Positions 51,016-59,158 are shown, numbered from the stretch's first letter. The stretch is 64,000 nucleotides of DNA from an uncultured Eubacteriales bacterium (GCA_964467515.1 CAYXQP010000002.1:1275-65274); one strand, 5' to 3'. The notes: generated by a model from the letters alone, not told the origin. Made by a program: numbers and translations.

Positions 51016-51855
51016 ATGGATCCCCCCTGCGGGCGGCGGCTCGCCCTGCGGGTGGCCTACGACGGCACCCGTTACCTCGGGTTTCAGCGACAGGCCCGCG
51101 GCCCCACCGTGCAGGAAGCCCTGGAGGAGGCCCTTTCCCGTCTCGCGGGTGCGCGCGTCGTCGTCCATGGTGCGGGGCGGACGGACGCCGGCGTCCACGC
51201 CTGGGGGCAGGTGGTCCACTGCGAGGCGGCCCTGTCCATCCCTCTGGAGCGTCTTCCCCTGGCCATCAACGCCCGGCTCCCCGGCGACGTGGTCGTGACG
51301 GGCGCCGCCGCGGTCCCCGGCGGATTCCACGCCCGCTACGAGGCTCGGGGCAAGACGTACCGTTATCTCATCTGGCGAAAGGGGACGCCGTCACCCTTCC
51401 TCGCCCGTTACGCCTGGCATTGCCGCTGGGAACTGGACATCGCTCCGATGCGCCGCGCCGCCGCCCGCCTGGTGGGGACCCATGACTTCCGCGCCTTCAG
51501 CGCGGCCGGCACCCCCGTGCGGAGCACCGTCCGCACCCTGAGGCGTCTCGAGTTGACGGCGGCCGCCGACGGCTCCCTGCTCCTCGTGGAGCTGGAGGCG
51601 GATGGGTTTCTGTACCGGATGGCGCGGCGCATCGTGGGAACCCTGGTCCAGGCGGGGCGGGGGCGACTCGCACCGGAGGACGTGGCCGCCATCCTGGACG
51701 GGAGCGGGCTCCGGGCCGGCCCGCCAGCCCCGGCGCGCGGCCTCTGCCTGGCCGGCGTACTCTACGAGCCGCCCCTCGCCTTCCGGCCGGACGCTGATGC
51801 CGGCCTGCCGGTGCCCTTCGCGCCGCCGGTGGTGTCCCCGGGGTCGCGGGGCTGA
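51016..51855 (+). CDS. truA: tRNA pseudouridine(38-40) synthase TruA
   Basis: RLALRVAYDGTRYLGFQRQ...GAGRTDAGVHAWGQVVH. The upstream GTG at 50986 is an alternative start. Confidence 0.85.
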   Translation: MDPPCGRRLALRVAYDGTRYLGFQRQARGPTVQEALEEALSRLAGARVVVHGAGRTDAGVHAWGQVVHCEAALSIPLERLPLAINARLPGDVVVTGAAAVPGGFHARYEARGKTYRYLIWRKGTPSPFLARYAWHCRWELDIAPMRRAAARLVGTHDFRAFSAAGTPVRSTVRTLRRLELTAAADGSLLLVELEADGFLYRMARRIVGTLVQAGRGRLAPEDVAAILDGSGLRAGPPAPARGLCLAGVLYEPPLAFRPDADAGLPVPFAPPVVSPGSRG

Positions 51856-51934
51856 GGCGGCCGCCCGGACCCGTAGCGGGGCGGCGGCCACGTGGTCGCG
51901 GAGGCCGCGCCGCCCGGTGCGGTGAACGGGCCCT

Positions 51935-52903
51935 TCAGAGGGAAGCCAGTTGGTGGTAGGGGAGGTAGCCGACGCCCGTCACCGTGTCGGCGGCGCCGTA
52001 ATAGATTAGGAGGTCGCCGTCGGCCCAGATCATGCCGCAGGCAAAGACCACGTCCGGCTTGAGCCCCCGCCGCTCCCACGGCAACTCCGGCTGCAGCAGG
52101 GGCTCCCCCTGCCGCGCCAACACCTCCCAGGGCCGATCCGGGTGGAGGAGGGCCAGGCCCAGGCGGTACACGTTGGCCTCGTCGGCGCCGTGGTAGACCA
52201 TGAGCCAGCGCCCGTCGGGGAGCCGGAGGGGGGGCGGGCCGATGCCCACCCGGGCGCTGTCCCAGCTTCCGGGGAGGGGTCGCAGGACGACACGGTACTC
52301 CTCCCAGAGGCCGACGGCTGGTCCCGAGGCCACCCAGATCTCACCCGTGGGGGGGCGGAAGTAGAGCCATGCCTTGCCATCGATCCGCTCGGGCAGCAGG
52401 GCGGCGTTCTTGCAACCGGGCAGGCCGAGGGGGTCCGTGCCGGCGCGGGGCCAGGCATAGGGCACGCTGCTGGCCCGCAGAGCCACTCCCCAGTCGCCGG
52501 GAAACCGGGCGCCGAAGGCCGTGGTGAGTAGGTACCAGGTATCGTCCAGCAGGGTCACGCGGGGGTCCTCCACACCGCGCGTCTCCCGACAGGGAGTGAA
52601 GGGGTCGCAGGGCGGCTTCACCACGGGGTGAGGGTGCACGTCGAAGTGTAGGCCGTCCCGGGAGGTGGCCAGGCCGATGCAGGAGATCCAGCCGTCCGGC
52701 AGGGCCCGGCTCGTGGCGCGAAAGAGGAGGTATACCTCGGCGCCGTACAGGCAGGCGGTGGGATTGAAGGTGGCGGCGGCGCGCCAGGGCACCTCCGGGT
52801 CCGGCTCCAGGATGGGGGTTTCGGATAGGCGGCGCACGTACAGAGGGCGCCCCCGCCAAGGGGCGGCCGTCTTTCCGTTCGGCCGGAGGACGGGCGCATT
52901 CAT
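51935..52903 (-). CDS. GH130-family (DUF377, beta-propeller) glycoside hydrolase/phosphorylase-like protein
   Basis: FNPTA..., EDPRVTL..., IYYGAADTVTGVGY motifs. ATG start with a GGAG Shine-Dalgarno. Confidence 0.65.
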   Translation of the reverse strand: MNAPVLRPNGKTAAPWRGRPLYVRRLSETPILEPDPEVPWRAAATFNPTACLYGAEVYLLFRATSRALPDGWISCIGLATSRDGLHFDVHPHPVVKPPCDPFTPCRETRGVEDPRVTLLDDTWYLLTTAFGARFPGDWGVALRASSVPYAWPRAGTDPLGLPGCKNAALLPERIDGKAWLYFRPPTGEIWVASGPAVGLWEEYRVVLRPLPGSWDSARVGIGPPPLRLPDGRWLMVYHGADEANVYRLGLALLHPDRPWEVLARQGEPLLQPELPWERRGLKPDVVFACGMIWADGDLLIYYGAADTVTGVGYLPYHQLASL

Positions 52904-53042
52904 GGTCGTGCTCCGCTCGCGTGCCTCGTTCCGGATGCGGCGCATGGCTGTATCTTTATCGCCCCAAGATACGAACGTTTTGAACGGCCGGTGCCTTGGT
53001 TGCGCGGTCGGGGGCGCGTCGCTATACTTTTTGTGCCGTGTC

Positions 53043-53117
53043 GCGCCCGTAGCTCAGAGGATAGAGCACCGGCCTCCGGAGCCGGGTGCGGGGGTTCGAT
53101 TCCCTCCGGGCGCACCA
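53043..53117 (+). tRNA. tRNA-Arg (anticodon CCG)
   Basis: Acceptor GCGCCCG/CGGGCGC, anticodon loop CTCCGGA, T-loop TTCGATT, CCA encoded. Confidence 0.85.
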
Positions 53118-53246
53118 CCCTTTGCTGCCTACTCTTCGGCGGTCGACAGCGCGCTGTGAGGTGCGCCGGGCCTTCGCCGGGATTCCCCGGCGGAGGAGGC
53201 GAGGACCGCCGTCCTCCGCGGCCTCGCTGACCGCTGTTTCAGGTCT

Positions 53247-54209
53247 TCAGGGGCGGAACAAAAGAGAGAGGATTCCCTTGAAGACGTGCAGGCGGTTTTC
53301 GGCCTGCTCCCACACCAGGGAACGGGGACCGTCCAGGACGTCGGCTGTCACCTCCTCGCCGCGATGGGCGGGGAGGCAGTGGAGGAAGACGGCCTCGGGG
53401 CGGGCCCGTGCCATGAGGGCCGCGTCCACCCGGTAGGGGGCGAAGATCCGCAGCCGTTCCTCCCTCTCCTCCTCGCGGCCCATGCTGGCCCACACGTCGG
53501 TGTACACGGCGTGGGCGCCCGCCACCGCCGCGACCGGGTCGTGTCCCACCTCCACCCGGCCGCCCGACCCGGCCGCCACCGCCGCGGCCAGCCGGACCTC
53601 CTCGGGCTCGGGCTCATAGCCGGGAGGGCTGGCCACGGCCAGGTCCATGCCCACCAGGGCCGCGGCCATCAGAAGGGAGTGGCAGACGTTGTTCCCGTCG
53701 CCCACGTAGGCGAGGCGCAGGCCCCGCCACCGGCCGAAGCGTTCGCGGAGAGTCAGGAGATCGGCCAGGGCCTGGGTGGGGTGGGTGCGGTCCGTCAGGC
53801 CGTTGATGACGGGGACGGAGGCATGGCGGGCCAACTCCTCCACCTCCTCCTGGGCGAAGGTGCGCATCAGGATCCCGTCCAGGTAGCGGGAGAGGACGCG
53901 GGCCGTGTCGGCTACCGTCTCGCCACGGGAGAGCTGGAGCTCCTCCGGGTCGAGGATCACGGCCTGGCCGCCCAACTGTGCCACGGCCGCCTGGAAGGAG
54001 AGACGCGTCCGCGTGGACGGCTTGCGGAAGAGCATGCCCAGCACGCGCCCGCGCAGGGGTTCCTCTGCGCCGCGGGGCAGGCTCCTCCAGCGGGCTGCCT
54101 CGGCGAGGATGGCCAGCGTCTCCGCCGGCGAGAGGTCGGAGAGCCGCAACAGGTCCCTTCCCCGCAGGTCGACCTCCCCGGCCGCGTCGGCGCCCAGGAG
54201 CCGGCTCAC
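53247..54209 (-). CDS. argF: Ornithine carbamoyltransferase
   Basis: STRTR, HPTQ, DVWASMG and HCLP motifs. GTG start 5 nt after a GGGAGGGGGG Shine-Dalgarno. Confidence 0.88.
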   Translation of the reverse strand: MSRLLGADAAGEVDLRGRDLLRLSDLSPAETLAILAEAARWRSLPRGAEEPLRGRVLGMLFRKPSTRTRLSFQAAVAQLGGQAVILDPEELQLSRGETVADTARVLSRYLDGILMRTFAQEEVEELARHASVPVINGLTDRTHPTQALADLLTLRERFGRWRGLRLAYVGDGNNVCHSLLMAAALVGMDLAVASPPGYEPEPEEVRLAAAVAAGSGGRVEVGHDPVAAVAGAHAVYTDVWASMGREEEREERLRIFAPYRVDAALMARARPEAVFLHCLPAHRGEEVTADVLDGPRSLVWEQAENRLHVFKGILSLLFRP

Positions 54210-54237
54210 GGTGTCCCCCCTCCCGGCCGCGACGCGC

Positions 54238-55305
54238 TCACCCCACCCCGCCCCCCTCACCGGGTACGGTCGCCCCTGGGAGCGGGCGGGAGGGCCTCGC
54301 CTCCTCCATGCCCACGCCGTGCACGGCGGCGCCGCACCCGGGGCAGCGTCCGTCCACGAGCCTGACCTCCTCCACATAGAAACCCCGCCGAACGATGAGG
54401 GGTTCCCCGCACACGGCGCAGGCGGTGTCGTCGTCCCCCGGTCGCCAGGTGTTGCCCACGTAGACATGGTGCAACCGCCGGCGCGCCAGGTCGCGGAAGC
54501 GCTCCAGGGTGGCCAAGGGCGTGGGTGGATTCGTCAGCCGGTAGGCGGGGTGGTAACGGGAGAGGTGCAGGGGGATCTCCTGCCCCAATCCCGCTAGCCA
54601 TGCCACCAGGCCGGTGAACTGCTCCTCGTCGTCGTTCTCTCCCGTGACCACCAGGTGCGTCACCTCCAGGTGGCGACCGGCCCGGTGGATGGCCTCCACC
54701 GTGTCCAGGACCGGCCGGAGCAGGCCGCGGCAGACGCGGGTGTAGAAGCCCTCGGCAAAGGCCTTGACGTCCACGTTGAAGGCGTCCACCACGCCCAGGA
54801 GGTCACCGAGCGGCGCCGGCGAGAGGAAGCCGTTGGTAACCATGACCACCTTGAACCCTTCGTGGCGCAGGAGAGGCGCCGCGTCCATGATGTACTCGAA
54901 CCAGAGGCCAGGCTCGTTGTAGGTGAAGGCCACTCCCACGCAGCCCGGGTCCCTGGCGCGGGCGGCCGCCGCGGCGGCGACGAGACGGGCGGGCGGGAGG
55001 AGGTCGGTGGGCGCCTCCTCCTGGGAGATGGCCCAATTCTGGCAGAAGGCGCAGGCCAGATTGCACCCGAGGCTTCCGAAGGACAGGACGCGGTGGCCGG
55101 GATAGAAGTGGAACAGAGGTTTCTTCTCCACCGGGTCCAGGTGGGCGGCCGCGACCCGGGCGTAATTGACGGCATAGAGCGTTCCCTCGATGTTCCGGCG
55201 CGTCCGGCAGTAGCCCGCCTTGCCGGGGGCGATCCGACAGTTCTTGGGGCAGAGCCGACACACCGCCAGGCCGTTCTTGCGCTCATAATATAAGGCCTCG
55301 TGCAT
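54238..55305 (-). CDS. AmmeMemoRadiSam-system radical SAM enzyme (PFL-activase-like)
   Basis: CNLACAFCQN (CxxxCxxC). N-terminus ALYYERKNGLAVCRLCPKNCRI. C-terminal Cys cluster. Immediately upstream of argF on the same strand. Confidence 0.8.
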   Translation of the reverse strand: MHEALYYERKNGLAVCRLCPKNCRIAPGKAGYCRTRRNIEGTLYAVNYARVAAAHLDPVEKKPLFHFYPGHRVLSFGSLGCNLACAFCQNWAISQEEAPTDLLPPARLVAAAAAARARDPGCVGVAFTYNEPGLWFEYIMDAAPLLRHEGFKVVMVTNGFLSPAPLGDLLGVVDAFNVDVKAFAEGFYTRVCRGLLRPVLDTVEAIHRAGRHLEVTHLVVTGENDDEEQFTGLVAWLAGLGQEIPLHLSRYHPAYRLTNPPTPLATLERFRDLARRRLHHVYVGNTWRPGDDDTACAVCGEPLIVRRGFYVEEVRLVDGRCPGCGAAVHGVGMEEARPSRPLPGATVPGEGGGVG

Positions 55306-55394
55306 AATTATGCAAACGCCTCCCCTGCAGACCACCGGCGCGGCGGCCCACCCGCTGACGGAGGGCCCGTCGACGCCGGGCCGGTCTGCCCGCC

Positions 55395-56780
55395 CTAGGT
55401 GAACCGCCTGGTTCGAAACCTGTAGATGGATATCCCCTCCTCGACAGGCGCGATCCCTGCCTTGCGGCAGGCCAGGAGGTACTGTTGGAGCGGCCTGTCC
55501 ACCCCCTCGAGGGCCGGCAGGAGGAGGCCCCGACGCCTTCCCTTAGCCACGATGACGCCGTATGTCGCTGGGTCCAGGTCCTCCCAGGAGGCTACGGGCT
55601 CGGCCGGTTCCAGGATGTCCACGCTCACGCTCAGGTCGGGCAACTCCTCCGGCACGAGCGGCGGAAACCGCGGGTCGGCGGTGGCGGCCGCCACGGCGTT
55701 GGCCACGATCTCCTCCAGGAGGGTGGGGCGCACCGGCGCTACGGTGCCCATGCAGCCTCGCAGCCTGCCGTCGGCCTTCAGGGAAACGAACACCCCGCGA
55801 GCCTGGGCCAGGAGCTCCGGATCCTCCTCGGTCAGTTCCGGGGCCTCGGCGGCGATGCGCTCGGCCAGACGGTGGGGGTCGGCCTCGCCGTCCTCCAGGA
55901 GAAGGGCCAGGGCCCGGCGGGCGACGGCCACGGGAGCGGAGGCACCCTCCCCGGCCGCGGGGCGCCACAGGGCCACGGCGTAACCGACCCCGAAGGGCCC
56001 CTCGTAGGAGAGCAGCCGCACCTCGGCGCGGTGCCCCGCCAGGGCGCCGAGGAGGATGCCGAGGCTGGGGAGGGCGTCCTGGCCGGCGCGGGCGGCCAGC
56101 TCGGCGGGAAAGTCGAGGAGGTCCTCGGACGCTCCCGACCGGAGGAGTTGTACCAACCGCCGGTCGAAGAGGGGCCCCTCGGGCGCGTAGCCGGCGGGGG
56201 CCTGGGGGGTGAGTCGGTGGGAGAGGTCTCCGCTGGCCAGGAGGGCCACGGCCCGCCGCAGACGCTCGGCGGCTCGTCGCAGCGCGGCGCCGTAAGGCGC
56301 GGCCTGGCGGGGCGGGCCCCACGGAGGCGTCAGGATGACGCAGGGGCGGAGGGCTCCGCCCCGGCTGAGGAAATACAGGGGTACCAGGGCTCCGTGGTCC
56401 AAGCGGTGGGGACGGACCACCCGGACAGCGAGCCCGGCCGCGACGGCTTCGTAGGCCACCGCCTCCGCTAGGTCCCGGTCCAGCTCCACCGTGATCTCGA
56501 CCTCGGGGGCACCGAACTCGCCGAATCCCCCGGCCAGTCTTTCTCCTGCGTACAGGCAGACGGCCTCCTCGCTCACGGGGCCGTGGGGGGTGACCAGCAC
56601 CAGGGTGTCGGCGGGAGTGGAGGAGACTTGCCGGGCCAGATCCCCCAGGGCGCGGGCCGTCCGCCGCACCTGTCCCGCCGCCTCCCCGCCCACCTCGGGG
56701 ACGAGGACGGGGGGATGGGGTACCAGGGCTCCCAGGACTATCCCCGCCACGGGCCTACCCCTCGCCGGGATGATGTGCAT
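55395..56780 (-). CDS. Fusion protein: N-terminal LigB/Memo-like (class III extradiol-dioxygenase fold) domain and C-terminal AMMECR1 domain
   Basis: N-terminal VPHPP...TPHGP...LDHGALVPL...SGDLSHRL (LigB/Memo-type). C-terminal GVFVSLKADGRLRGCMGT...YGVIVAKGRRRGLLLP (AMMECR1). Confidence 0.75.
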   Translation of the reverse strand: MHIIPARGRPVAGIVLGALVPHPPVLVPEVGGEAAGQVRRTARALGDLARQVSSTPADTLVLVTPHGPVSEEAVCLYAGERLAGGFGEFGAPEVEITVELDRDLAEAVAYEAVAAGLAVRVVRPHRLDHGALVPLYFLSRGGALRPCVILTPPWGPPRQAAPYGAALRRAAERLRRAVALLASGDLSHRLTPQAPAGYAPEGPLFDRRLVQLLRSGASEDLLDFPAELAARAGQDALPSLGILLGALAGHRAEVRLLSYEGPFGVGYAVALWRPAAGEGASAPVAVARRALALLLEDGEADPHRLAERIAAEAPELTEEDPELLAQARGVFVSLKADGRLRGCMGTVAPVRPTLLEEIVANAVAAATADPRFPPLVPEELPDLSVSVDILEPAEPVASWEDLDPATYGVIVAKGRRRGLLLPALEGVDRPLQQYLLACRKAGIAPVEEGISIYRFRTRRFT

Positions 56781-56831
56781 CCAGCCGCGCCACCGTTATT
56801 ATAACGCCAGGCGCCGGCGGCCCGGCCGGGC

Positions 56832-58199
56832 GTGGGGGTGGAGGGCTTGTTCGATAAGGTGCTGGTGGCCAATCGGGGCGAGATAGCGGTCCGGATCATC
56901 CGGGCGTGCCGGGAACTGGGCATCCGCACGGTGGCCGTGTACTCGGAGGCCGACGCGGGCGCCCTCCACGTGGCCTTGGCGGACGAGGCGTACTGCGTGG
57001 GCCCGGCCCCGGACGTCCGCAGCTACCTCAACGTGGGTGCCATCCTGGAGGTGGCCGCCCGCACCGGCGCTGAGGCCGTGCACCCCGGCTACGGCTTCCT
57101 GGCCGAAAACCCCCACTTCGCCGCCGTCTGCCGCGCCTGGGGGCTGGACTTCATCGGCCCCGATCCGGAGGTCATCGAGCGCATGGGGTCCAAGGCCCTG
57201 GCGCGGCAGGCCATGCTGCAGGCGGGGGTGCCGGTGGTGCCGGGGAGCCCGGGCGTCGTGGAGAGTCCAGATGAGGCCCTGGAGATAGCAGCGGACATCG
57301 GGTACCCGGTGTTAATCAAGGCCGCAGCGGGGGGCGGCGGGCGGGGTATCCGGGTGGCGGGGACGCCGGGAGAGCTGGAGGAGATGCTGGAGGCCGCCCA
57401 GCGGGAGGCAGCCCGCTTCTTCGGCCAGGGGGACGTCTATCTCGAGAGGTTCCTGGAGGATCCCAGGCATGTGGAGGTCCAGATTCTGGCGGATCGGCAC
57501 GCACACGTGGTTCACCTGGGGGAGCGGGAGTGCTCGGTGCAGCGGCGCCGGCAAAAGATCCTGGAGGAGGCGCCGTCCCCGGCCCTCTCCCCCGCGCAGC
57601 GCAGGGCTCTCTGCGAGGCCGCCGTTCGGGCCGCCACGGCCGTGGGGTACAACAACGCCGGCACCGTCGAGTTCCTGGTGGACCGGAGCGGATCCTTCTA
57701 CTTTTGCGAGATGAACACGCGCATCCAGGTGGAGCACCCCGTGACGGAGATGGTGACGGGCGTGGACATCGTCAAGGAGCAGATCCGGGTGGCGGCCGGG
57801 CTGCCGCTGCGTTTCCGCCAGGAAGACGTCCAACCCCGCGGCTGGGCCATGGAGTGCCGCATAACGGCCGAGGACCCGGACAACCGCTTGCTCCCCTCGC
57901 CCGGGACCGTCACGGAGCTGGCGCTGCCCGGCGGACCCGGTGTCCGGGTGGACAGCGGGGTGGGGGTCGGCTCCCAGGTGCCGCCCTACTACGACTCCCT
58001 CATCGCCAAGGTCATCTGCTGGGGGGAGGACCGGGAGGAGGCGCGGGCCCGCATGGGCCGCGCCCTGCGCGAGCTGCGCGTGGGCGGGATCAGGACCATC
58101 GTCCCCCTCCTGGAGGAGATCCTGCGCCATCCGGATTTCACGGCGGGGCAGTACCACACGCGTTTCCTCGAGGAAGCCCTCTTGGCCGCCAGGCGCTGA
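56832..58199 (+). CDS. accC: Biotin carboxylase (AccC-like: acetyl-CoA carboxylase or pyruvate carboxylase subunit A)
   Basis: VLVANRGEIAVRIIRACRELGI and the ATP-grasp domain. No accB is adjacent. The true start may be a TTG or GTG slightly downstream. Confidence 0.88.
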   Translation: MGVEGLFDKVLVANRGEIAVRIIRACRELGIRTVAVYSEADAGALHVALADEAYCVGPAPDVRSYLNVGAILEVAARTGAEAVHPGYGFLAENPHFAAVCRAWGLDFIGPDPEVIERMGSKALARQAMLQAGVPVVPGSPGVVESPDEALEIAADIGYPVLIKAAAGGGGRGIRVAGTPGELEEMLEAAQREAARFFGQGDVYLERFLEDPRHVEVQILADRHAHVVHLGERECSVQRRRQKILEEAPSPALSPAQRRALCEAAVRAATAVGYNNAGTVEFLVDRSGSFYFCEMNTRIQVEHPVTEMVTGVDIVKEQIRVAAGLPLRFRQEDVQPRGWAMECRITAEDPDNRLLPSPGTVTELALPGGPGVRVDSGVGVGSQVPPYYDSLIAKVICWGEDREEARARMGRALRELRVGGIRTIVPLLEEILRHPDFTAGQYHTRFLEEALLAARR

Positions 58200-58246
58200 G
58201 CGGGGAACGACGGCAAGGCGGTGACGCGAAAGGGCGACGAGCCCCC

Positions 58247-58642
58247 TCAGCGCTTGCTGTACTGGGGGGCCTTGCGGGCCTTTTTGAGGCCGTACTTGCG
58301 CCGCTCCTTCTCCCGCGGGTCGCGCGTCAGGAGCCCGGCCCGCCGGAGAGTGCGCCGCAGGCTCTCGTCCAGGGTCAGGAGGGCCCGCGCCACGCCGTGG
58401 CGGACGGCGCCCGCCTGGCCGGAGAGCCCGCCCCCCTGCACGTTGACCAGGACGTCGTACTTGTCCTCGGTGGCGGTCAGGGCCAGGGGCTGCCGCACCT
58501 CAATCTGGTGCCGGCGGCGCGGAAAGTACTCGTCCAGGGGCTTGCCGTTGACGATCACGTTGCCGTTGCCCGGGACCAGCCGCACCCTGGCCACGGCCTC
58601 TTTGCGCCTGCCGGTACCCCAGTACTGGACCCTATAACCCAT
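58247..58642 (-). CDS. rpsI: 30S ribosomal protein S9
   Basis: ...[29 protein letters not shown]. Confidence 0.95.
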
Positions 58643-58723
58643 GCCCGGTCTCTCCTCACTTCAAGGGAATCCGTCCGCCGGATCGTCCGGTCCGTCCCCG
58701 CCGCCCCGCCCGCGCCCCCGCGG

Positions 58724-59158
58724 TCAGTCCAGGGGCCACGGCTCCGGCCGCTGCGCCTGGTGCGGATGCTCGGCCCCGCGGTACACGCGCAGCTTGCCCA
58801 TCATGGCCCGCCCCAGGGCCGTCTTGGGGAGCATGCCGCGCACGGCCTTTTCCATCACGCGCTCGGGCCGGGTCCGCAGGAACTCGCGGTAGGACATCGC
58901 CCTCAACCCCCGGGGCCAGCCGGTGTGACGGTAGTAGATCTTTTGGTCCAACTTGCGGCCCGTCAGCACGATCCGGGCGGCGTTGATCACGATGACGTGA
59001 TCGCCCACGTCCAGGAAGGGGGTGTACTCGGGCTTGTGCTTGCCCTGGAGGAGCCTCGACACGACGGTGGCGACGCGCCCCAGCGGTCTGCCCGCCGCGT
59101 CGATGACGTACCACCTGCGCTCGATCTCCCTGGTGTCGGGCACGAAAGTCCTTTGCAC
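58724..59158 (-). CDS. rplM: 50S ribosomal protein L13
   Basis: MQRTFVPDTREIERRWYVIDA... Confidence 0.95.
   Translation of the reverse strand: MQRTFVPDTREIERRWYVIDAAGRPLGRVATVVSRLLQGKHKPEYTPFLDVGDHVIVINAARIVLTGRKLDQKIYYRHTGWPRGLRAMSYREFLRTRPERVMEKAVRGMLPKTALGRAMMGKLRVYRGAEHPHQAQRPEPWPLD

Follow-up and report, generated by a model that had tools for sequence, protein, structure and literature searches.

An AmmeMemoRadiSam cassette beside argF in the conserved ribosomal backbone of an uncultured Eubacteriales bacterium

Results

The amrA-amrS-argF block

We analysed a stretch of 64,000 nucleotides from an uncultured Eubacteriales bacterium (GCA_964467515.1 CAYXQP010000002.1:1275-65274; G+C ~70%), hereafter the window, in which three minus-strand genes lie head to tail: amrA (55395..56750, 451 amino acids from a GTG at 56750), which encodes a LigB-type Fe(II) domain joined to an AMMECR1 domain (Pfam and NCBIfam); amrS (54238..55305, 355 amino acids, ATG), which encodes the radical SAM enzyme of the AmmeMemoRadiSam system (TIGR04337); and argF (53247..54209, 320 amino acids, GTG with GGGAGG upstream), which encodes ornithine carbamoyltransferase (TIGR00658). 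An earlier note, made by reading the DNA alone, had described three minus-strand open reading frames (ORFs) here, spaced by 28-90 bp and set in the ribosomal supercluster. All three are present, the gaps measure 89 nt (amrA-amrS) and 28 nt (amrS-argF), and the cassette is indeed flanked by rpoA-rplQ-truA on one side (49.5-51.9 kb, plus strand) and by rpsI-rplM on the other (58.2-59.2 kb, minus strand). Among the hidden Markov model (HMM) families proposed for the three proteins, PF01871, PF02900, TIGR04335 and TIGR04337 all matched, and TIGR04336 and PF01875 did not.

AmrA is the standard bacterial fusion

The longest ORF for amrA (55395..56780, ATG at 56780) has the 461 codons of the fusion described earlier; the likelier start is nevertheless the GTG at 56750, giving 451 amino acids, because GAGGGG stands 7 nt upstream of it, because the resulting protein is identical to database protein P0001 and because the N-termini of homologues match. 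In an AlphaFold 2 (AF2) model built from a 33-sequence alignment (mean predicted local distance difference test score, pLDDT, 94; predicted template modelling score, pTM, 0.72), residues 1-7 of the 461-residue form are the sole low-confidence part (pLDDT <50). The AMMECR1 domain occupies residues 309-460 in 461-residue numbering (55401..55856, minus strand; PF01871, 8e-41, 139.7 bits against a cutoff of 25), and the protein also exceeds the cutoff for AmmeMemoRadiSam protein A (TIGR04335, 124.3 bits against 99). Its LRGCMGT (Cys343) and DPRF (D369, R371, F372) stretches fit the RGC(h)G cysteine and DxR(aromatic) motifs defined for AMMECR1 (PMC2034487), and R341, G342, C343, G345, D369, R371 and F372 are invariant among 33 homologues. 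Sequence and Foldseek searches of the PDB both return PH0010 (1vaj), MM0484 (1zq7) and ST0229 (1wsc), which are alike in sequence, in fold and in the RGC(I/M)G and DxRF motifs; these archaeal proteins are stand-alone, whereas the AMMECR1 domain of the window is fused.

That fusion had been singled out as unusual, a view that the database does not bear out. When 5.8 billion proteins were searched for relatives of AmrA (E<=1e-5), the best 120 of 2955 matches had the LigB+AMMECR1 architecture without exception (120/120), often under the names "AmmeMemoRadiSam system protein A" (NCBI) or "protein A/protein B" (JGI). Relatives of the fusion occur in at least 573 species (one genome per species scanned) that span Bacillota, Chloroflexota, Acidobacteriota, Armatimonadota and others. 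Balaji and Aravind reported in 2007 that AMMECR1 persistently neighbours a radical SAM enzyme and a ring-opening dioxygenase, with the latter of which it can be fused (PMC2034487). The LigB+AMMECR1 fusion is thus the standard bacterial AmrA. At two loci the LigB-type part and the AMMECR1 part are encoded by neighbouring ORFs with 3-12 nt between them (L035, 10001..11401; L038, 10001..11332). Neither locus has a radical SAM gene, and in both the next genes belong to arginine biosynthesis: argC directly in L038, argJ some ~0.6 kb further on in L035.

The N-terminal domain is LigB-like and not Memo

The N-terminal domain (residues 18-269 of the 461-residue ORF; 55974..56729, minus strand) matches PF02900 LigB over profile positions 3-268/269 (5e-37, 127.9-130 bits against a cutoff of 26.3). 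Searched on its own at E<=1, it matched LigB and extradiol dioxygenase models only, with neither PF01875 Memo nor TIGR04336 AmrB among them; some AmrA homologues carry a weak precomputed PF01875 match. Its best relative is TK2203 of Thermococcus kodakarensis (5hee; phmmer 1e-16), which also ranks first in a Foldseek search of the PDB (E=7e-21, target TM-score 0.83), followed by aminophenol, homoprotocatechuate and DOPA dioxygenases and by LigAB. MEMO1 (3bcz, 7kq8) appears at rank 37 or lower (E ~1e-8, target TM-score 0.55, 12-13% identity): it shares the fold superfamily and the association with AMMECR1, but only as a distant structural match and with no HMM match to the domain. The class III extradiol dioxygenase fold proposed for this domain therefore holds, on the strength of PF02900 and TK2203, whereas its Memo-like label does not; an identity as Memo or AmrB is ruled out, and the polypeptide is not literally component A joined to component B.

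H22, H66, D128-H129, H188 and Y259 do not vary among 33 homologues, and S183, D185 and S187 are invariant or at least 90% conserved in the same set. In an alignment with the aminophenol dioxygenase beta subunit, H22 and H66 fall on its PHPP and PH(G/W) histidines and H188 on its SH histidine, which makes them candidate counterparts of the iron-site and catalytic histidines of class III extradiol dioxygenases (LigB, aminophenol dioxygenase beta, HPCD-like). The alignment matches E260, a residue at least 90% conserved, only loosely to the ligand Glu of extradiol dioxygenases; the Memo-type Cys metal ligand appears to be swapped for this candidate LigB-type Glu. Unlike TK2203 and the extradiol dioxygenases, the domain of the window is joined to AMMECR1. 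It occurs mostly in anaerobes, in which ring cleavage that depends on O2 is unlikely.

For the gene neighbourhood, all ORFs near the fusion were clustered at 83 loci: the window, L004, genome loci L005-L084 (L007 being represented by L085, on the same contig), L085 and L087. A scan of these loci with an HMM of the N-terminal domain (E<=0.01), which could miss a true Memo, revealed no second LigB- or Memo-like gene from 6 kb before to 8 kb after the fusion. The bacterial system thus consists of two genes and three domains, with the LigB-type domain probably filling in for component B.

AmrS and its pairing with AmrA

AmrS scores 313.7 bits on TIGR04337 (cutoff 220) and contains the sequence GCNLACAFCQN, in which C81, C85 and C88 form the CX3CX2C motif (55042..55065). 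Eleven of its cysteines are invariant in 46/46 homologues. Outside the core it carries an N-terminal four-Cys motif (C16-x2-C19-x3-C23-x9-C33), which likely holds an auxiliary cluster, and a zinc-ribbon-like C-terminal motif (C296-x2-C299...C321-x2-C324). The CX3CX2C core is most like that of pyruvate formate-lyase activating enzyme (PFL-AE) and other glycyl-radical activases, and PFL-AE is the sole PDB sequence match (E=3e-4); PFL-AE nevertheless lacks both additional motifs. The models for PFL-AE, YjjW and NrdG give only ~47-49 bits, far under the activase family cutoffs (TIGR02493 PFLA, 48.6 against 231.75; TIGR02494, 37.5 against 174.35; TIGR04041, 48.4 against 250.2), and no glycyl-radical enzyme partner is present. 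The earlier description of a PFL-activase-like radical SAM enzyme in an AmmeMemoRadiSam-type cassette is thus borne out: the TIGR04337 score exceeds its cutoff and the nearest characterised proteins are glycyl-radical activases. At the 3' end of amrS (~54245..54260), assemblies of the same organism differ in a G6/G7 homopolymer (L001 and L002 versus L003); the G7 form shifts the frame of the last codons and thereby gives an ORF of 366 amino acids that overlaps the argF start by 4 nt. This difference may be real strain variation or an assembly error.

Compared with the AmmeMemoRadiSam system as defined by TIGR04335, TIGR04336 and TIGR04337, the window has the defining pairing, AmrA and AmrS both over their cutoffs, adjacent and on the same strand, but it lacks a separate nearby gene for AmrB (Memo-type), the fused LigB-type domain standing in its stead; many bacteria have such a form with two genes and three domains. 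Across the 83 loci the radical SAM gene lies immediately downstream of the fusion in 48, immediately upstream in 8 (Chloroflexota), nearby in 2 and is absent from the flanks in 25. The two genes are hence adjacent in 56/83 loci and form a conserved unit. Fifteen of the 25 loci with no flanking radical SAM gene are Acidobacteriota (Pyrinomonadaceae/Blastocatellia; L033, L041, L042, L053, L054, L057, L061-L063, L066, L068, L071-L074). There the fusion has a divergent geranylgeranyl-reductase-family gene (TIGR02032, 167 bits) on one side and gyrB-recF on the other, as it does, again with no radical SAM gene nearby, in many of L103-L168.

argF belongs to the chromosomal backbone

The assignment of argF is secure (TIGR00658, 401.7 bits against a cutoff of 280.85; NF001986, 421.7 bits), and its translation shows the STRTR, HPTQ, SMG and HCLP motifs. 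It directly follows the radical SAM gene in the window and in L004 (whose fusion is 73% identical), L008, L016, L034 and L172 (argF 80% identical), the last with the same layout as the window; the linkage, which could have been peculiar to this genome, is therefore found elsewhere too. Two comparisons place it. First, in three relatives with argF 68-70% identical (L173, L174, L175), the order is rpoA-rplQ-truA-rplM-rpsI-accC(-)-argF(+) with nothing between accC and argF, and in L175 argF is followed by tRNA-Arg-GDT1-FUR. L174 and L090 come from the same sample, where the cassette lies elsewhere, which fits a single organism whose argF was left with accC while its cassette is located at another site. 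Second, in four relatives with fusions 57-61% identical, the fusion and radical SAM genes are adjacent in 4/4 and argF accompanies them in 0/4, their surroundings being Peptidase_M55; a P-type ATPase, DJ-1 and DUF420; or a metallo-beta-lactamase-like gene and ArsB. The Bacillota backbone rpoA-rplQ-truA-rplM-rpsI-accC / argF-tRNA-Arg-GDT1-FUR is conserved, with the cassette between accC and argF: since sister lineages lack the cassette and the cassettes of relatives lack argF, argF is a backbone gene beside which the cassette comes and goes. Its adjacency is best explained by chromosomal position and says little on the function of the cassette, contrary to the earlier suggestion that an arginine/carbamoyl-phosphate enzyme so tightly linked could point to that function.

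A candidate arginine operator on the amrS start codon

The gap between the fusion and the radical SAM gene carries TTGCATAATTATGCA, whose 14-nt core (55301..55314) is an ARG-box-like perfect palindrome, TGCATAATTATGCA, that holds the amrS start codon (55303..55305). It is the sole perfect TGCAT-N4-ATGCA in the 64-kb window and matches 14/14 positions of AWTGCATRWWYATGCAWT, the ARG-box consensus of streptomycetes and high-GC Gram-positives (PMC4865122). The box is kept in L004 (TGCATAAATATGCA) and L172 (TGCATAAATATGCG) despite the divergence of the rest of the gap. It overlaps a promoter-like element (55287..55315, minus strand) in which TTGCAT (55310..55315) is separated by a 17-nt spacer from TATATT (55287..55292); a consensus scan of 51800..58300 found this promoter-like site only, its call being one base out of register. 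Neither an ARG box nor a promoter-like site stands directly before argF in the window. In the cassette-less relatives, that is where such elements occur: TTGCATAATTATAAC..TATATT lies 72 nt before the argF ATG in L173, TTGCATAGTTATGAA..TATATT directly upstream of argF in L174, both with the -35/17/-10 layout seen in the window, and a perfect box, TGCATAAACATGCA, upstream of argF in L175.

In related Bacillota the same motif precedes argC, 54-107 nt upstream in L085, L015, L020, L022, L043 and L052, and a TTGCAT, 17 nt, TATAAT layout is common to all nine argC promoters. A position weight matrix (PWM) for ARG boxes, with sites scoring at least 10 counted as strong, found strong boxes at 7/9 argC loci (the training sites being among these nine) and before argC in both untrained metagenome loci, L115 and L167. 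Upstream of ~95 radical SAM genes it found only 1-2, strong boxes being limited to the window clade, which argues for lineage-specific wiring rather than general membership of a regulon; that amrA and amrS generally belong to the ArgR regulon is ruled out by the near-complete lack of boxes upstream of them outside this clade. The site thus resembles ArgR/AhrC operators in its core, identical to the high-GC Gram-positive consensus, and in a -35-overlapping layout like that of related argC and argF promoters, and differs from them in lying on the start codon of a non-arginine gene, ~1.1 kb from argF. The presence of ARG box and promoter element at the amrS start, as upstream of argF in the cassette-less relatives, suggests that amrS and argF are probably co-transcribed and arginine-repressed, in this lineage only. 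The co-transcription with argF put forward earlier is accordingly plausible, given the 28-nt gap and the lack of a terminator or of a promoter-like or ARG-box site directly before argF; no terminator-like site was found in 51800..58300. For amrA, a TATAAT hexamer (56798..56803, minus strand) in the short divergent accC-amrA gap is a candidate -10 read from the sequence by eye; it was not called by the consensus scan because it has no -35 match. As for the palindrome acting as an RNA hairpin that hides the amrS start codon, this is unlikely with a stem of only 5 pairs, and a search of 52800..58300 against Rfam (E<=0.1) matched only the tRNA-Arg gene.

Discussion

We assign a probability of roughly 0.65 to the reading that the locus is a standard bacterial two-gene AmmeMemoRadiSam cassette set in a conserved backbone, with amrS and argF co-transcribed and repressed by ArgR and with its three domains working on one substrate. 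In the lineage of the window, the arginine promoter/operator that precedes argF in cassette-less relatives would now lie on the amrS start codon; amrS and argF would be transcribed together, and ArgR with arginine would repress them, acting on this promoter or else as a block to transcription that reads through from the amrA promoter. AmrS, the AMMECR1 domain and the LigB-type domain would most likely act on a common substrate: AmrS would initiate a step with a 5'-deoxyadenosyl radical, Cys343, which is invariant and lies in the cleft of AMMECR1, could be the catalytic thiol, and the 2-His-1-Glu iron site of the LigB-type domain would bind or transform the same substrate, which might be AmrA itself, an RNA base or a small molecule. 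In aerobes and eukaryotes that lack the radical SAM partner, the radical step would be done differently or not be needed.

Several observations weigh against this reading. The biochemical mechanism is drawn from domain content alone. The TATATT hexamer is formed by amrS codons 5-7 (55287..55300), TTA TAT TAT of the conserved ALYYE motif, which are rare in a 70% G+C genome and kept in L004, L172 and L008; the hexamer could be a mere AT-rich codon choice at the 5' end of amrS. If TTGCAT/TATATT fires as a promoter, its transcript is predicted to begin ~25 nt past the amrS start codon, so that amrS would be translated only from read-through, an odd layout. Either the site would serve solely as an operator, or as a roadblock to transcription coming from the amrA promoter, or argF would have a 1.07-kb leader and amrS would depend on read-through. 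ArgR was not found: tblastn with Bacillus subtilis AhrC gave no match in the window or the loci, which says little, 64 kb being a small target. Finally, arginine or ornithine genes flank the cassette in 16/32 of the Bacillota-type loci with both flanks (cwlD or rplM in 12/32), and an ornithine-racemase-like gene can overlap it, so that a purely positional linkage is unproven for Bacillota as a whole.

This last point bears on the possibility that ornithine carbamoyltransferase, or arginine, ornithine or carbamoyl-phosphate chemistry more broadly, belongs to the same pathway as AmrA and AmrS, and that they share an operon for this reason. The neighbours in question recur in several layouts. Besides the argF genes described above, at least 12 other Bacillota-type loci have a complete arg operon downstream of the cassette and on its strand; ornithine-fermentation genes (ortB, oraS, oraE, a GlmL-like Or-4 and an Orr-like racemase) stand immediately upstream of the fusion in 7 loci, overlapping it by -1 to -23 nt; arginase directly precedes it in 4 (L022, L067, L070, L079); and in L075 carbamate kinase follows amrS after 6 nt. 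Loci flanked in this way are scattered over many deep branches of a rough fusion tree. Metagenomes, in which the window protein alone found no relative, yielded 80 loci in a repeat scan with an alignment, all <=46% identical and used as a replication set only; they repeat the pattern at a lower rate (L115, L121 with rSAM-arcC-argF, L126, L167). The ARG box on amrS in the window clade could be counted on the same side. Against a shared pathway, argF stays with the backbone when the two separate and the cassette is found elsewhere; Chloroflexota and Acidobacteriota have no arginine or ornithine genes near the cassette, with arg genes in 2/33 loci of those other layouts; ARG boxes are missing upstream of amrA and amrS outside the window clade; unrelated backbone genes (cwlD or rplM) are kept at a similar rate; and the occurrence of AMMECR1 and Memo in archaea and eukaryotes argues for a general role (PMC2034487 and established knowledge). 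We therefore regard a shared pathway as unlikely.

A second proposal is that AmrS is a true activase and gives the AMMECR1 domain a protein radical, glycyl or other, or a modification, so that AmrA becomes the radical enzyme. Its appeal lies in the kinship of AmrS to glycyl-radical-enzyme activases, in the invariant R341-G342-C343-x-G345 of AMMECR1 and in the tight coupling of the fusion and radical SAM genes. It is made improbable by the distance of AmrS from the activase cutoffs, by the lack of a glycyl-radical-enzyme fold or fingerprint in AmrA, and by the many fusions with no radical SAM gene nearby, those of Acidobacteriota above all. AMMECR1 is, besides, found in aerobic eukaryotes that lack an AmrS-type radical SAM enzyme.

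Doubtful, too, is a third proposal, made by Balaji and Aravind (PMC2034487), that the cassette makes an RNA base modification, its ribosomal position then reflecting a role in translation. AMMECR1 adopts the RAGNYA fold and has both a conserved Cys and a cleft like that of Tyw3 (PMC2034487), and in many Bacillota rplM-rpsI, truA and a methyltransferase-like gene (a label given by eye) are found near the cassette. The ribosomal neighbourhood is, however, the same conserved backbone that carries cwlD and argF, close relatives have the cassette in unrelated contexts, and no RNA-binding domain was detected. As to arginine and ornithine genes flanking the cassette in Bacillota beyond what inherited gene order explains, with the cassette acting in, or regulated by, arginine/ornithine metabolism, the recurrence of these genes leaves this a slim chance.

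AMMECR1, Memo/LigB-type proteins and this radical SAM enzyme are among the most widespread enzyme sets without a known function, and AMMECR1 is a human disease gene, so a reliable contextual clue to what they do would be useful. The accessible literature holds no functional study of the triad, only the 2007 fold paper and incidental mentions. The locus of the window offers no such clue, since the fusion takes its usual bacterial form and position accounts for the presence of argF: it is a correctly recognised, ordinary member of a known system whose fusion has been known since 2007. It may serve instead as a cautionary example, in which a tight, operon-like linkage (28 nt) arose by placement of a cassette into a conserved backbone. 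The regulatory oddity is nevertheless worth keeping, namely the position of the predicted argF arginine operator on the amrS start codon; together with the wider arginine/ornithine neighbourhood in Bacillota it provides modest leads. The recurrence of that neighbourhood is an unproven lead; a role in arginine or ornithine metabolism, if true, would for the first time give a hold on the function of a system that is conserved from archaea to humans.

Neighbouring genes and minor observations

Three further features adjoin the block. A convergent tRNA-Arg(CCG) gene (53043..53117, plus strand; ARAGORN; Rfam RF00005, 68 bits) delimits the amrA-amrS-argF unit at its 3' end and is kept after argF in L004, L008, L172 and L175; that an arginine tRNA adjoins an arginine-pathway gene may be a coincidence. 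On the other side, a stand-alone biotin carboxylase gene (accC-like; 56832..58199, plus strand; NF006367, 689.6 bits) diverges from amrA. It is a backbone neighbour outside the cassette and is found at the corresponding place in L004, L008 and the cassette-less L173-L175; it has no adjacent biotin carrier gene and is wedged between rpsI and the cassette or argF. Between truA and the block lies a GH130 family gene (51935..52945, minus strand), also present in L004 and L172, whose best match is beta-1,2-mannobiose phosphorylase (267.6 bits, under the cutoff of 450). The whole rplM-rpsI-accC-amrA-amrS-argF-tRNA-Arg block (53043..59158) has one orientation in the window and L172 and the opposite one in L004 and L008, an inversion through which rplM-rpsI of the window point away from rpoA-rplQ-truA; the breakpoints fall at the GH130/tRNA-Arg junction and at the rplM/GDT1-FUR junction.

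Two other gene families recur around the cassette. An unannotated family of ~440 amino acids (MAGKKVIIMGAAGRDFHNFN...), with no NCBIfam match at 1e-5, is encoded downstream of it in L016, L027, L032 (14380..15702), L050 and L075. The gene comes directly behind argF in L016 and follows arcC in L075, and in L032 it is preceded by a weak ARG-box-like site at a distance of 126 nt. In one Bacillota clade that includes Ammonifex degensii (L012, L019, L021, L024, L031, L039, L044, L046, L064, L069 and L087), the fusion has a gene for a LysE-type translocator (PF01810, 1e-35) upstream of it, in most cases immediately so.

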